DNA of 64,000 nt from a virus (lineage: Duplodnaviria; Caudoviricetes): IMG/VR virus record IMGVR_UViG_2974778117_000001, positions 32,001 to 96,000 of that record; one strand, written 5' to 3'. The notes below the pieces were generated by a model that was not told where the DNA came from, searched no databases, and saw only the letters and a list, made by a program, of their open reading frames with translations. Every line of letters starts with the position of its first letter. The first letter of the stretch is position 1. Below are positions 7,819 to 50,883 of the stretch, one piece after another. Position numbers and translations under genes: made by a program.

Positions 7819-8657
7819 CAGTGCCCCTTCACGATGAAGCTGACGAGCTCCTTCGCCTGGGGCACGATAAGGTCCGGGTTGTTGCCGGCGCGAACCAGGG
7901 CGAAGATCACTTCAGCGCGCAGTTCGCGATCACCCACAATCTCCGATTCCTTCTCAGGGGTAGTGACTGGAGGATCGGGAACGAAATCATTGCGCTTCAG
8001 GTTCGCCAGGGCCTTCTGTGCCAGCTCCAGATAGTCAAACGCTGACATCAGACCGGCACCCTCGGCGCTGAAGGAATCCACGAGATCCTCACAGCTCAGA
8101 CGACGCCACGGCTCAGCGGGCAGCCACTCTTCGCTGGTCCGATCCACGCTGAGCCGTGGCATACCTTCATACAAGCCGAGCTGGACGCGAGTGTGACCAT
8201 CTTCAGTCTCGTAGGCATCGAAGCCCATCCAGATCGGCTGTCCGTCACCGCCAGATCGTTCGATGAAGGTGTTGATCGCCTCGATGTCATTTTCCAGGTC
8301 GTGCAAAGGCTGCACCGACAGGAAGTTCTGGAAGATCACTTCACTCGCCGGGTACTTGGAAGGTGCTTTTCGTATCAGGTCGAAGACTGACTGGAGTTCG
8401 GCGCAAGACTGCTTCCAGCCCTTGGTGTCATCGACGGTGTAGGGTACGACACTGAACACATTCGCATCGAACAGCTCTTCATTCGAGTCGATCCTCGGAC
8501 GCTTCTCGAAGATGGTGACCGTACCATCCAGATCGACTGCGATGAACTTGGAAGTGGTAGAACCACTAGTGTTCTCGATTTCCGAAAGCAGATCAACGCC
8601 TCGCTCAGTTGCTTCCTTGATAACCTTGTTCCAGAACTTGTCGGACTTGATGCTCAT
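7818..8657 (-). CDS. hypothetical early protein
   Basis: 279-aa ORF; A.D.DG.V..F...P motif shared with the next gene. Confidence 0.75.
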   Translation of the reverse strand: MSIKSDKFWNKVIKEATERGVDLLSEIENTSGSTTSKFIAVDLDGTVTIFEKRPRIDSNEELFDANVFSVVPYTVDDTKGWKQSCAELQSVFDLIRKAPSKYPASEVIFQNFLSVQPLHDLENDIEAINTFIERSGGDGQPIWMGFDAYETEDGHTRVQLGLYEGMPRLSVDRTSEEWLPAEPWRRLSCEDLVDSFSAEGAGLMSAFDYLELAQKALANLKRNDFVPDPPVTTPEKESEIVGDRELRAEVIFALVRAGNNPDLIVPQAKELVSFIVKGH

Positions 8658-9167: not shown

Positions 9168-9356
9168 GGGCTTGATCTTTTGACGCTCACGCTATAGTAT
9201 CCCTTTGTCCGCCAGGAGACTTCTAGGCTGCCCCCTTTTTACAAAAGAGGTGTAGTCGATCTGTCGCTTGCCCTACTGGTAGAAGCATTATAACGTCTGC
9301 TCTTTACAGCGGTCAAGGGGTCTGGATAAATACCTGGGACTTAAGAGGCACTATAC

Positions 9357-31900: not shown

Positions 31901-32122
31901 GATGATTACGCCTTCGCCAAGATCACGGTGACCAGGCTGACGAACTCCGGCGGGAGGATCACATCATGAACGAAACCGTCCGACCATTCCACGCTGAGAA
32001 CGATGATCGCGGCGAGAGCCGGGTCAACGAGAGCGATCTGACCGATCTGGTTGGAGTTCAAGGAAATCATCATATCTACTTCTCCTAGGTTACGATTGGG
32101 GCCAATCCCCGACCGTACAAAT

Positions 32123-47532: not shown

Positions 47533-48281
47533 TGAGAGATCCATTCTACTACAGCACCACCAAGAAACTGCTGGTAGCGTTCTGCAGCATCTTTGACGAG
47601 ATCGCAATCATCGACGACTTTGGACGTAGGATCGAGGTTCCCTTGAACTTTGCCCAGCGTGAAAAGTTCCTAGATGATCCAGGTCGTCAGGCTGACTACG
47701 ATATGGACGCCTTGACATATGACATCGCCTTCCCCAAGATGGGTGTGGAGATCGCCGGCTTCAACTTCGCGCCGGAAAGAAATCTGAACCCCTTGCGTCG
47801 CATCCCTGACTTCGATGATGTGAACAAGCAGGAGGTGATGATGTACAATCGCGTCCCCTACGATCTGAACATGAACCTGTACATCGGTGCCAGGAAGCTG
47901 GAAGACAGCCTCAAGATCGTGGAACAGATCATCCCCTTCTTTGCCCCGGAACTGACCCTCACGATCCGCGACAAGGAAAACTTCGGAATGGAAACGAACA
48001 TTCCGATTGAGCTGAACAGCGTGGCTGTCAACATTGATGCCCTAGGTTCGCTTGACACCAAGAGGGTGATCATGTGGACCTTGAACTTCACGGTGAAGGC
48101 ATTCTACTACTCAGACGTCAGACTTGACACTCGGATCAAACAGGCAATCATTGACTTTGATGAGATGGATCTCACTTCAGTTCTGGAACGCTATACTGCT
48201 ACTGTCAATCCTTTGGATGCTGAGAAGACTGATCCCCACACCGTGATTGAGACTACTGAGTTGGGAGTGAATGATGACTGA
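47532..48281 (+). CDS. gp15: tail sheath stabiliser / terminator
   Basis: FYY...KK..VAF..IFD.I, VP..FA.REKF, VPYD....LYI, IVEQIIPFF.P. Confidence 0.93.
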   Translation: MRDPFYYSTTKKLLVAFCSIFDEIAIIDDFGRRIEVPLNFAQREKFLDDPGRQADYDMDALTYDIAFPKMGVEIAGFNFAPERNLNPLRRIPDFDDVNKQEVMMYNRVPYDLNMNLYIGARKLEDSLKIVEQIIPFFAPELTLTIRDKENFGMETNIPIELNSVAVNIDALGSLDTKRVIMWTLNFTVKAFYYSDVRLDTRIKQAIIDFDEMDLTSVLERYTATVNPLDAEKTDPHTVIETTELGVNDD

Positions 48282-48765
48282 CCCATTGGATATGATCTCC
48301 CAGACGTTGAACACAATCACTGGGATGGACAAGCTACCGCGTGAGTCTCAAGTCGAGATTGACGCTGAAGAGGACTATCTCACTGCCCGTAAGAATCTGA
48401 AGGAACTGGTCGAGACAGGCATGGAAATTGTGCCTGACATGATGGCGGTTATGACTGCCACCCAGGATCCCAAGATGTATCAAGCGGCTGCAGCCGTCCT
48501 GAAAAGCGTCGCTGCACTTAACGCACAGATGATGGAAGTATCATCAAAACGAGAGAAGAACACTCGCCCACCAACTCCCCAAAAGCCCGAAGATTCTACC
48601 ACGCACATCGAGGCCAAGGGACCTGTGTACATTGGGACAACGGCTGACATCATCAAACAGAGACGGCTAGCTAAGGAAAAGGAACAGGCAATTGACGTCG
48701 AGGCAGTCCAAGTAAAGGATCCTCGACAAGAAGAGGAGATTCCTGGGGATTCATCAGAAGAGTAA
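48271..48765 (+). CDS. gp16: terminase small subunit
   Basis: D.EEDY..AR.NL..L, DP.MY, YIGTTAD; position upstream of terL. Confidence 0.85.
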   Translation: MMTDPLDMISQTLNTITGMDKLPRESQVEIDAEEDYLTARKNLKELVETGMEIVPDMMAVMTATQDPKMYQAAAAVLKSVAALNAQMMEVSSKREKNTRPPTPQKPEDSTTHIEAKGPVYIGTTADIIKQRRLAKEKEQAIDVEAVQVKDPRQEEEIPGDSSEE

Positions 48766-48769
48766 TCGC

Positions 48770-49214
48770 TAGCAGTCATGAACGTCGCGCTTCGCGCGGG
48801 CTTCGACAGCTGACGCTGTCTCGCCGGTCAACTTGCTTCATGAACCGATCCGGTCTTGATGAACCCTTGGGCTAGCGGACACACTTTGGCCATCTAGGCC
48901 AACGTATGTTCAAAGAACAATACTGACAGTCAAGGGTCCCTTTCGGGGTAGGATGTGGGGAGCGGTGACACCCTGTACCTTGATATTGGTCTCTCGCGAG
49001 ACTCCCGCCATGACTACAGATCGCATGTCATTAGATCAGAGTCAACACCTGTTGCAGCGGAGCAGAGCAGGTCATACTTCAGTGGTTGGTTAGGCCACCT
49101 TGCCTCTTCAATAGGTCTTACTCAGAAAGCGCATCTTACGTCGCGACTACGATTAGCCGACGGCTAGCTTCCACTCATTGTTCATCATATAGTGCCAGAG
49201 GGTGTTCCTCCGAC
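48770..49214 (-). ncRNA. candidate large structured non-coding RNA
   Basis: 507-bp gap with no credible ORF, more than 10 helices, GNRA tetraloops and G-U pairs on the minus strand, preceded by a sigma70 promoter. Confidence 0.55.
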
Positions 49215-49220
49215 CATGTA

Positions 49221-49249
49221 ATTATAGCGGTGACGAACCGCCAAAACAA
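49221..49249 (-). promoter_or_regulatory. sigma70-type promoter antisense to the terminase operon
   Basis: TTGTTT-17-TATAAT. Confidence 0.65.
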
Positions 49250-49272
49250 GACCAGACAGAAAGAGTAACCAG

Positions 49273-50883
49273 ATGTTTGACGAGGATAGTCAATACAAGA
49301 AGGAAGACGCGTACAACGGCAACTCCAAGCTGAAGAAGGCTGGGGTCGAGACTCAGTTCTCCGAATGGGAGCTGGATGAGCTCGAGAAGTGCCAGAATGA
49401 CGTGCACTACTTCATCGCAAACTACTGCATGATCATCTCACTGGACGATGGTCTGGTGCCTTTCCGTATGTTCGGCTATCAGAAGAAGATGGTCGACATT
49501 GTCCTGGCGAATCGCTTCTCGATCTTCAAGTGGCCACGTCAGATGGGCAAGACAACCGTGGTCGCCGCGATCTTGCTCTGGTATGCGATCTTCAATGAAG
49601 AGTATCGAATCGCAATTCTGGCGAACAAGGGCGACCAGTCGAGAGAAATTCTTGCCCGTCTCCAGCTGATGTATGAAGAGCTTCCTTGGTTCATGCAGGT
49701 CGGCGTTTCGGTCTGGAACAAGGGTAACATCAAGCTCGGTAATCGAAGCGAAGTCTTCACAGCGGCGACCGGCGGTTCTTCGATCCGTGGTAAGTCTGTC
49801 AACTTGATGTACCTCGATGAGTTCGCGTTCGTTGAGAATGACGTCGACTTCTACACCTCCACATATCCGGTCGTCACCTCCGGTACCAAGACCAAGGTCA
49901 TCATCACCTCGACCCCGAACGGTATGAACCTGTTCTACAAGATCTGGACAGACTCGACCAACGGGAAGAACAACTACGTCCACAACGAGGCGTTCTGGCA
50001 CGATCATCCGAAGCGAGATCAGGCTTGGAAGGACGAACAGCTCCGAAACATGTCGGAGCGGCAGTTCGAGCAGGAATTCTTGTGCAAGTTCCAGGGTTCA
50101 AGCGATACGCTGCTGTCGCCCGCTAAGCTGGAACAGCTCACCTATCAGGATCACATCCGAGAGCTGGGTGGAAACCGTGACTTCAAGATCTATGAAGACC
50201 CGATCAAGGACGCTTCCTATGTCGTAACCGTGGACGTGTCGGAAGGTATCGGCAAGGACTACTCCGTCATCTCGGTGTTCGACACGACGGAAGCTCCATT
50301 CCGTCAGGTGGCGATGCTCAGATCCAATATCATCGCCCCTCTGATCCTTGCCGACTTGGCGAACCGGATCGGTCACCTCTACAATCAGGCTGTCCTGATC
50401 GTGGAATGCAACAGCATCGGCAACACTGTGGTCACCGCATTGTGGGAAGACTACGAGTACGAGAATCTGCTGATGACCAAGAACAAGGAAGCTGAGTCCA
50501 AGGTCGGTGAAGGTGGCAAGTCTCAACCGGGTGTCAGAACTACGAAGAAGACCAAGCTGATCGGCTGCAGCCAGCTCAAGATGCTCATTGAGTCTGATCA
50601 GCTGATCATTCAGGACTTCGATACCGTTGCAGAACTCAACAGCTTCATCAAGAAGGGTACAAGCTGGGAAGCAGAGCAAGGCAAGACGGATGACATCGTG
50701 ATGACTCTCGTCATCTTCGCATGGTTCGCCTCGCAGCCTTACTTCGCTGAGATGGTCGATCAGAACATCCGCAACCTGGTGAGAGCAAACCTGATGAATC
50801 AGGATGAGTATTGCTCCGCCTTCGGCTTCCTAGATGACGGCTGGGACGATGAAAGTGTTACTGACAATGGTGGTCTTTTCTGA
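49273..50883 (+). CDS. gp17: terminase large subunit
   Basis: PRQMGKTT (Walker A), YLDEFAF (Walker B), ITSTPNGMN, DVSEG.G.DYS, DD.VM nuclease motifs. Confidence 0.97.
   Translation: MFDEDSQYKKEDAYNGNSKLKKAGVETQFSEWELDELEKCQNDVHYFIANYCMIISLDDGLVPFRMFGYQKKMVDIVLANRFSIFKWPRQMGKTTVVAAILLWYAIFNEEYRIAILANKGDQSREILARLQLMYEELPWFMQVGVSVWNKGNIKLGNRSEVFTAATGGSSIRGKSVNLMYLDEFAFVENDVDFYTSTYPVVTSGTKTKVIITSTPNGMNLFYKIWTDSTNGKNNYVHNEAFWHDHPKRDQAWKDEQLRNMSERQFEQEFLCKFQGSSDTLLSPAKLEQLTYQDHIRELGGNRDFKIYEDPIKDASYVVTVDVSEGIGKDYSVISVFDTTEAPFRQVAMLRSNIIAPLILADLANRIGHLYNQAVLIVECNSIGNTVVTALWEDYEYENLLMTKNKEAESKVGEGGKSQPGVRTTKKTKLIGCSQLKMLIESDQLIIQDFDTVAELNSFIKKGTSWEAEQGKTDDIVMTLVIFAWFASQPYFAEMVDQNIRNLVRANLMNQDEYCSAFGFLDDGWDDESVTDNGGLF

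Follow-up and report, generated by a model that had tools for sequence, protein, structure and literature searches.

Non-coding RNAs of several hundred nucleotides (nt) with conserved pseudoknotted folds are rare, and those solved so far have proved to be ribozymes, scaffolds of ribonucleoproteins or RNAs that self-assemble; catalysis, or a place in a ribonucleoprotein, is common among large conserved RNAs of complex fold. The described systems closest to the locus considered here are the RNAs of the GOLLD, ROOL, OLE and raiA type, the packaging RNA (pRNA) of phage phi29 and the cis-encoded antisense RNAs of phages and plasmids, including the "anti-late" transcripts of T4, a phage whose DNA packaging works in vitro without RNA. 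Here we analyze the space between the small and large terminase genes, terS and terL, in a stretch of 64,000 nt (positions 32,001 to 96,000 of the IMG/VR record IMGVR_UViG_2974778117_000001; below, the window, to which coordinates refer unless stated otherwise). The window is a section of a 159.5-kb T4-like Stenotrophomonas phage with about 99% identity to the genus Menderavirus (Marzo, BUCT608, Ps15, Smp14 and YB07). Comparison with homologs indicates with high confidence that the minus strand of this space, 48766–49272, encodes a pseudoknotted RNA of about 330 nt (approximately 48870–49215) belonging to an undescribed family. The existence of a strongly constrained new RNA family on this strand is well supported; the transcript itself is predicted.

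An earlier reading of the window, made from its letters only (the sequence-only reading), had reported a 507-base-pair (bp) gap without a credible open reading frame (ORF) and had proposed a large structured non-coding RNA, perhaps of a new class, on its minus strand. Both borders of the gap were reproduced:

48271–48765, plus strand: terS, gp16-like small terminase gene; ORF, which Marzo, Ps15 and Smp14 label as encoding the small terminase; its 3' end points toward the RNA gene.
49273–50883, plus strand: terL, gp17-like large terminase gene; ORF, head to head with the RNA gene.

In close relatives, the two genes bear the annotations gp16 and gp17. By TBLASTN, the terL product is 99.8% identical to that of Menderavirus and 62% identical to that of Xanthomonas phage X1. 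The gap holds short ORFs only, the biggest having 70, 60 and 46 codons on the plus strand and 38 on the minus strand; none recurs at the homologous loci compared, and the alignments of homologs contain indels with lengths that are not multiples of three, in agreement with the earlier claim. The 70-codon plus-strand ORF (48955–49167), which is antisense to the RNA core and is annotated as a "hypothetical protein" in some deposited genomes (CPT_Marzo_005 in phage Marzo), is probably a false gene call, being without conservation in homologs; the presence of the RNA gene corrects this annotation. ARAGORN found no tRNA or tmRNA gene in the window. The supposition that abutting terminase genes are the T4-type norm also held: at all 77 more distant T4-like loci (terL identity 44–49%) terS and terL overlap or are separated by at most 97 nt, and none of these loci carries the RNA, while in all examined relatives with terL identity above approximately 55% the gap is 465–660 nt long.

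A search of the phage's own genome identified a second copy of the RNA (below, the paralogue) at about 141.4 kb and in the opposite orientation, and a covariance model found exactly two copies in this genome:

About 141480–141840 of the own genome (G000:C1; L002:1485–1840), plus strand: second copy of the RNA, from the own-genome search.

When isolate genomes were searched by BLAST, 60 nt matched in the Xanthomonas phages X1 and BUDD, within a 485-nt gap far from terL. Both phages have a further copy inside their own terS–terL gap, and hence two copies each; the terminase copy had been missed by the exact pattern because its module carries a compensatory change (CCAG..CUGG). Members on IMG/VR and metagenome contigs (L008, L010, L011, L016, L021, L034, L037 and L045/L046) were gathered by scanning for the most conserved stretch as a pattern and then applying nhmmer and a covariance model. 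A scan of genome contigs for the invariant module gave 13 matches, all of them chance matches inside genes or unrelated motifs, with none aligning past the module; most of the 34 matches in the metagenome scan were likewise due to chance or to a different small motif.

The family is distributed among T4-like phages of Xanthomonadales and their environmental relatives, with a diverged form in phages of Burkholderiales. The latter was found in the 600–660-nt terS–terL gaps of Acidovorax phage ACP17 and Variovorax phage V45v66, each of which has a second copy elsewhere:

L061:1895–2554, strand not stated: terS–terL gap of ACP17 with the diverged form; second copy at L155 (sequence comparison).
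L062, about 1860–2500, strand not stated: terS–terL gap of V45v66 with the diverged form; second copy at L154 (sequence comparison).

These sequences are probable distant relatives, as they share with the main family CUAAU-P1-UAA, a helix resembling PK (AGGGCG/CGUCCU) and P9 (elements described below) and match it weakly (nhmmer E about 1e-3; model R1 E = 0.005 to 0.007); a profile built from the diverged form did not match the main family by sequence. A second copy is present in every complete isolate genome examined (Menderavirus, X1/BUDD, ACP17 and V45v66), so that a pair of predicted copies in each genome, of which just one is at the terminase locus, is the rule in four lineages. All phages with the RNA that were examined in full have two old paralogues each, with the exception of the 87%-complete contig G001, in which only the second type was found.

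In the architecture derived by comparison, the 5' part of the RNA consists of a conserved CUARY, hairpin P1, URAG, the variable hairpin P2, the invariant hairpin P3 with a CUC/A internal loop, and P4. In the 3' core, the invariant UGGCG is followed by a 5-nt strand of P6 that pairs with the loop of a long stack formed by P8 and PK; the GNRA hairpin P5 and the small hairpin P7 branch from this stack, and the long hairpin P9 comes afterwards. Because P6 crosses PK and P8, the core is a double pseudoknot. Invariant nucleotides are located in junctions and internal loops (UGA, CUC, UGU, UGGCG and CCG). A closing helix joining the leader with the tail was sought and could not be established. From 5' to 3' of the RNA, the elements are as follows:

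49194–49215, minus strand: P0, 5' hairpin GGUCGGAGG/CCCUCUGGC; compensatory changes in X1, BUDD and L016 (CGUCGG/CCGACG, CGUCAC/GUGACG and CGUCUG/CAGACG).
49168–49191, minus strand: conserved leader (UAUAUGAUGAACAAUGAG..), seen in alignments; its CAAUGAG part recurs in most members; RNA or promoter element.
49128–49169, minus strand: 42-nt block with CUAGC, P1 hairpin CGUCG..CGACG, UAAG and flank; identical in both copies of the genome.
49081–49099, minus strand: P2, hairpin GGUGG/CCACU immediately 5' of the invariant module; 10–11 of 13 members have a hairpin here, with unrelated sequence.
49048–49078, minus strand: AGUAUGA and the invariant P3 module CCUG-CUC-UGC-loop-GCA-A-CAGG; invariant in 15 members.
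49011–49044, minus strand: P4, hairpin UGACU/AGUCA flanked by invariant UGU and UGGCG; 98.7% of cells paired, both-side changes in 5/5 pairs.
49002–49010, minus strand: invariant UGGCG overlapping the P6 5' strand (GGGAG); P6 94.6% paired, three pairs changed on both sides.
48990–49001, minus strand: P5, hairpin UCUC-GCGA-GAGA with a GNRA loop; 93% paired, both-side changes in 4/4 pairs.
48978–48983, minus strand: P8 5' strand UCAAGG, partner 48930–48935; duplexes of 5–7 bp differing in sequence from member to member.
48968–48974, minus strand: PK 5' strand AGGGUGU, partner 48950–48956; 6–8 bp in 13/13 members, 87.6% paired.
48958–48967, minus strand: NNCCG (here CACCG; CCG invariant) and the P6 3' strand CUCCC, inside the loop closed by PK (comparative alignment, RNAalifold).
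48950–48956, minus strand: PK 3' strand ACAUCCU (comparative alignment).
48930–48947, minus strand: P7, hairpin CCC-GAAA-GGG, then the P8 3' strand CCUUGA; there is no P7 in L034, L045 or the terminase copy of X1.
48879–48909, minus strand: P9, long 3' hairpin ACAUAC-UUGGCC..GGCCAA-GUGUGU; compensatory changes, for example AUGC-CUUCGG..CCGAAG-GCAU in L008, also in ACP17 and V45v66.
48766–48878, minus strand: 3' tail with CAAGGGU (48863–48869) and hairpins at 48805–48820 and 48786–48798, the latter with GCGAAGC (sequence).

The evidence for this fold comes from the alignment of the core in 15 members (157–161 nt per sequence), in which identity between groups is 45–64%. Standard pairs occupy 89.6% of pair cells as compared with 69.3% when partners are shuffled, and none of 500 shuffles reached 89.6%, although the members are related, so these shuffle statistics overstate independence. 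Changes on both sides were observed in 24 of 37 pairs. The covariation score is 0.537, versus 0.165 for shuffled partners and 0.08–0.17 for partners slid by one to three columns. RNAalifold, run without an imposed structure, recovered P3, P4, P5 and P6, of which P6 was absent from the model used to build the alignment. Covariation supports the hairpins P3, P4, P5 and P7 and the double pseudoknot (P6 and PK/P8).

P1 has a compensatory change in L010 (CGUUG/CAACG), and P3 a single one in the X1 terminase copy, from U-A to A-U. The P4 stem varies from 4 to 12 bp across 13/13 members. P6 is a helix of 5 bp between the strand directly after the invariant UGGCG and the strand directly after the invariant CCG. 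The PK consensus AGGGYGU/ACRUCCU is replaced by AGGCAUG/UAUGCCU in L037 and by GGCCU/AGGCC in L034. P8 differs in nearly every lineage (UGAGAG/CUCUCA, UGCAAU/AUUGCA, UGUAAU/AUUACA, CAGAGU/ACUCUG, CAGGAG/CUCCUG and others); it is 70.8% paired in the automatic alignment, where about five rows are out of register. The equivalent of P0 in the paralogue is a hairpin at the same place, there a terminator with a U-run, and in other members it is absent or unclear.

The central proposal of the sequence-only reading, a large structured minus-strand RNA and probably a new class, is supported by covariation across 15 homologs, by strand-specific G-U pairs and GNRA loops, and by the lack of a matching Rfam family. 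Its helix set fared unevenly, with about half of the helices in the wrong register. Comparative data retained GUCUC-GCGA-GAGAC (P5), CCC-GAAA-GGG (P7), ACAUAC/GUGUGU with UUGGCC/GGCCAA (P9) and GGUGG/CCACU (P2), and in a subset of members the 5' hairpin GUCGGAG/CUCUGGC. Three proposed helices have to be replaced by conserved ones: UAGCC/GGCUA by CGUCG/CGACG, AUGAC/GUCAU by UGACU/AGUCA, and GGCGG/CCGCU by GGGAG/CUCCC. CAACA/UGUUG clashes with the invariant hairpin CCUG-CUC-UGC..GCA-A-CAGG, the long-range ACCCUUG/CAAGGGU competes with the conserved UCAAGG/CCUUGA and is an alternative pairing at best, and the 3' CAUGAA multiloop is specific to the genus and lacks comparative support. The second genomic copy and the pseudoknots had not been noticed.

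Several features identify the coding strand. When the alignment is read as minus-strand RNA, there are 40 G-U cells versus 13 A-C cells, and one G-U pair of PK is kept in 13 of the 15 members. Only when read in this orientation is the P5 loop a GNRA tetraloop (GCGA, GAAA or GAUA), as it is in 10 of 13 members, the exceptions being GCAAA in the non-terminase copies of X1 and BUDD and UUAAUU in the terminase copy of X1. In 11 of 12 members, the fold of the RNA strand has a lower energy than that of the complementary strand, the mean difference being about 12 kcal/mol. All six copies away from the terminase locus have the same direction as their neighbors. Taken together, the G-U excess, the orientation of the GNRA loops, the fold energies and the co-directional second copies point to the minus strand of the window and to an RNA rather than a DNA hairpin element; the preference for the minus strand that had been read from two GNRA tetraloops and several G-U pairs agrees with the comparative counts.

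At the terminase locus, the RNA gene diverges from terL (head to head) and converges with terS (tail to tail); it lies antisense between the two genes in seven diverged lineages (the window, X1, BUDD, L045/L046, L037, L034, L011 and L008). A locus search with the single terL sequence returned the same phage genus only, and a search with the terL alignment returned 80 distant loci, with the RNA in 0/80. The contig G001 (IMG/VR, 156.7 kb; terL 62% identical) has an ORF-free gap of 465 nt (L067:1024–1488) in which neither the core model nor the profiles found a member, while it holds one non-terminase copy; the gap may contain a different or very diverged RNA. The position between the terminase genes may reflect an old insertion inherited in a conserved block of structural genes, and perhaps nothing more. 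In L008 (5064–7714), the terL homolog looks interrupted, with ORFs having GIY-YIG-like and Hint/intein-like N-termini beside the N-terminal piece of terL.

The paralogue is situated 3' of a DUF6197-like gene, which itself follows a NAMPT-like gene. A weak DprA/SLOG-like gene comes approximately 650 nt after the paralogue; about 60 nt separate the RNA from the start of this DprA-like gene in X1, BUDD and L016. The non-terminase copies of Menderavirus and X1 are 63–64% identical, while the two copies within a genome are 55% and 49% identical. Since the non-terminase copies are more alike across phages than the copies within one genome, the duplication predates the split of Menderavirus and X1.

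How is the RNA likely to work? We somewhat favor a folded RNA acting in trans, a function predicted only, given that its architecture is conserved, that bases at the junctions are invariant and that a second copy is present at unrelated loci. It would be made as an independent gene from its own promoter on the minus strand and would act via its folded shape, binding a protein or a small ligand or being catalytic; simple antisense pairing would not be its mode of action. The candidate promoter is:

49221–49249, minus strand: sigma-70-like candidate TTGTTT-17-TATAAT (49249–49244 and 49226–49221); motif, with promoter use predicted.

This motif, proposed by the sequence-only reading, is indeed present. 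In the paralogue, TTGTGA-17-TACAAT is found at the equivalent spot and passes the promoter scan; by eye, TTGACA-17-TATAAA is seen in L034, and weaker sites in L045 and the X1 terminase copy. TATAATTA, within the window's candidate (49221–49249), differs by one mismatch from a T4-type late box.

Besides the relatedness of the members, several points weigh against a trans-acting RNA expressed in this way. The -35 box TTGTTT of the window matches at 3/6 positions, which leaves the candidate under the threshold of the promoter scan; the candidate of the paralogue is immediately followed by the terminator; and the promoter is not conserved family-wide, with no type common to all members. We infer the transcript, its ends and its timing alike from the sequence. 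Folded singly, the minus strand has z = -1.48, with 8 of 100 shuffles equally good, which is not significant (z = 0.05 for the plus strand); the case for structure rests on covariation. The neighbors of the second copies, which by Pfam are DUFs and a weak DprA-like protein, indicate no partner protein or ligand. Finally, the 42-nt block kept identical and the strict antisense placement in seven lineages could mean that pairing matters.

The last point leads to the alternative that survives best, though we consider it unlikely: an antisense regulator. Here the RNA, and through the 42-nt block the paralogue as well, would pair with the terS–terL spacer of the mRNA, leading to cleavage or to uncoupled or lowered terL expression, or convergent transcription would interfere with read-through into terL. 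The antisense position in the seven lineages fits such a role, and, as visual inspection of the window showed no late-promoter match from the RNA gene to terL, the terL mRNA probably includes the spacer. The longest identical run between the terminase and non-terminase copies of this genome is the 42 nt over P1 and its flanks, against 60% identity overall; X1 likewise has an identical run of 42 nt, with seven lineage-specific differences common to both its copies despite the old duplication. No third site of at least 13 nt identical or complementary to either copy was found beyond chance in the whole phage genome. The block may be either kept uniform by gene conversion or constrained by a need of both RNAs to match one partner exactly, and gene conversion at the most conserved segment could explain the identity without antisense pairing. 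Moreover, the block forms the stable P1 hairpin and would be poorly available for pairing; the RNA seems to stop short of terS and to begin beyond the limits of terL, with no overlap with a coding sequence or ribosome-binding site; and a simple antisense RNA could do without GNRA loops, invariant bases at junctions and a conserved double pseudoknot. A mechanism by antisense only is also at odds with the second copy that Menderavirus, X1/BUDD, ACP17 and V45v66 each have at an unrelated locus.

As for late transcription, GATAAATA recurs on the plus strand of the window at 9325, 37705, 45701, 53211, 61999 and 63183, and TATAAATA with one mismatch has 16 matches versus 7.3 expected; GATAAATA/TATAAATA is probably the late-promoter box of the phage.

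Compared with trans action of a folded RNA in general, we regard as improbable the more specific idea of a ribozyme, in which the doubly pseudoknotted core and the invariant junction nucleotides would form a catalytic center for self-cleavage or another reaction. The size of the RNA, its pseudoknots and the invariant unpaired bases at helix junctions are in line with catalysis, as is the frequent occurrence of this activity among large RNAs with complex folds; against it, no ribozyme family of Rfam 15 matches and no conserved candidate cleavage site was identified.

Hardly more can be said for a cis-acting leader, riboswitch-like or a processive antiterminator, in which the P8 3' strand would switch between its partner in the core and a downstream copy of that partner. 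Such a copy is observed: the P8 5' strand is repeated downstream in the window (48863–48869, CAAGGGU), in the paralogue (L002, about 1865–1870, UGAGAG) and in the L006 tail of the second copy of X1 (GCAAUU), though P8 differs in each. The repeat could compete for the P8 3' strand and thus provide a conformational switch, and the non-terminase copies do lie upstream of co-directional genes. However, the terminase-locus copies have just the antisense of terS downstream, the genes following the other copies differ and share no common family, the gene after the paralogue has its own promoter-like sites, and there is no conserved terminator or hairpin sequestering a ribosome-binding site. Assignment of the family to riboswitches or cis leaders was rejected on the same grounds.

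We find it very improbable that the T4-type packaging machinery has the RNA as a functional partner, for example one that binds terminase or times it, with the antisense position reflecting this coupling and the paralogue sharing the 42-nt block as a recognition element; if true, DNA packaging would for the first time involve an RNA outside phi29-like phages. Scarcely any credence can be given to an RNA that takes part in packaging or times it by binding terminase or prohead like the pRNA of phi29. The gene does lie between both terminase genes in seven lineages, and the gap is confined to a clade of close terL relatives. Nevertheless, neighborhood inside a conserved block can be pure inheritance, the second copy is far from packaging genes, there is no similarity to pRNA, the close relative G001 has its 465-nt gap without a detectable member, and the RNA-free packaging of T4 in vitro also counts against such a role. 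Least probable of all is a DNA element (a pac site, replication origin or recombination site with hairpins forming in single-stranded DNA), the alternative named by the sequence-only reading, which has in its favor the adjacency to terS and the mini-hairpins of the tail and is disfavored by the G-U excess with its conserved PK pair, the GNRA loops on one strand only, the strand-asymmetric fold and the location of second copies away from packaging genes.

Mini-hairpins of the type GCGAAGC or GCGUAGC, one or two per locus, are found between the last conserved hairpin and the terS stop in the window (48786–48798), in L008 (about 8420–8450) and in L011, L034 and L037. The GCGAAGC heptamer forms an unusually stable hairpin as DNA.

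The RNA is open to direct experimental access, as lytic phages that carry it can be cultured on Stenotrophomonas, Xanthomonas and probably Acidovorax. Handles on its function are provided by the fixed antisense site in an otherwise gap-free packaging module, the second copy and the identical 42-nt block.

Comparison with known RNAs yielded no family to which this one belongs. Rfam 15 (4227 models), applied at gathering thresholds to the whole window, gave no match; permissive E-value searches with 2 kb and 356 nt gave chance-level matches only (P37, snoRNA fragments and freshwater-1 with 13.1 bits), and literature searches turned up no account of an RNA, either for this locus or for these phages. 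A group I intron was rejected given complete terS and terL, the lack of a match to RF00028 or elsewhere in Rfam, and the absence of a hairpin between the P6 3' and PK 3' strands; a group II intron was rejected because Rfam gave no group II match, the vicinity holds no reverse transcriptase and no gene is split.

The orphan RNA freshwater-1 (RF02979; 62 nt, metagenomic) shares with the RNA described here the hairpin CCUG-CUC-UGnn..nnCA-A-CAGG with the same asymmetric internal loop (model positions 11–36), preceded by a purine-rich lead and followed by another hairpin. However, the score is 13.1 bits where the gathering score is 72, the RNA of the gap has five times the length, and freshwater-1 is without P1, the double pseudoknot and P9. 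Membership was rejected and the hairpin was treated as a shared module. The comparison suggests that larger phage RNAs use a module to which the orphan freshwater-1 is a fragment-like relative. The same hairpin module is used by another RNA-like motif of about 70 nt (GGCCCGG..CUGAUGA-CCUGCUCUGCGGGAACGCAACAGG-GAACCUGCAACCGGGCU) seen in low-GC Firmicutes-like contigs (L015, L028, L029, L038 and L059, for example L059:4800–4930), which has a partial freshwater-1 match of 17.6 bits in Rfam.

The orientation of the RNA gene, opposite a region probably crossed by late transcription, resembles that of cis-antisense RNAs, from which it differs in overlapping no coding sequence or ribosome-binding site, in its conserved tertiary-type architecture and in having a trans copy elsewhere. 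With the pRNA of phi29 it has in common that it is a phage-encoded structured RNA, its own gene adjoining that of the packaging ATPase; the two are not homologous and differ in size, fold and phage type, and in the present RNA the second copy is far from packaging genes. A phi29-type pRNA was rejected, as there is no Rfam match and the host phage is T4-like. With the large orphan structured RNAs linked to phages (GOLLD and ROOL) and those of the OLE or raiA type, the RNA shares its general character: it is several hundred nt long, non-coding, phage-borne, rich in conserved helices and pseudoknots, and orphan in function. GOLLD and ROOL were rejected as assignments given no model match and no tRNA-gene neighborhood, the window containing no tRNA. 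The RNA described here matches none of these four in sequence or structure, and it is set apart from them by being found in T4-like lytic phages that infect Proteobacteria, twice per genome, with one copy at a fixed site between terS and terL.

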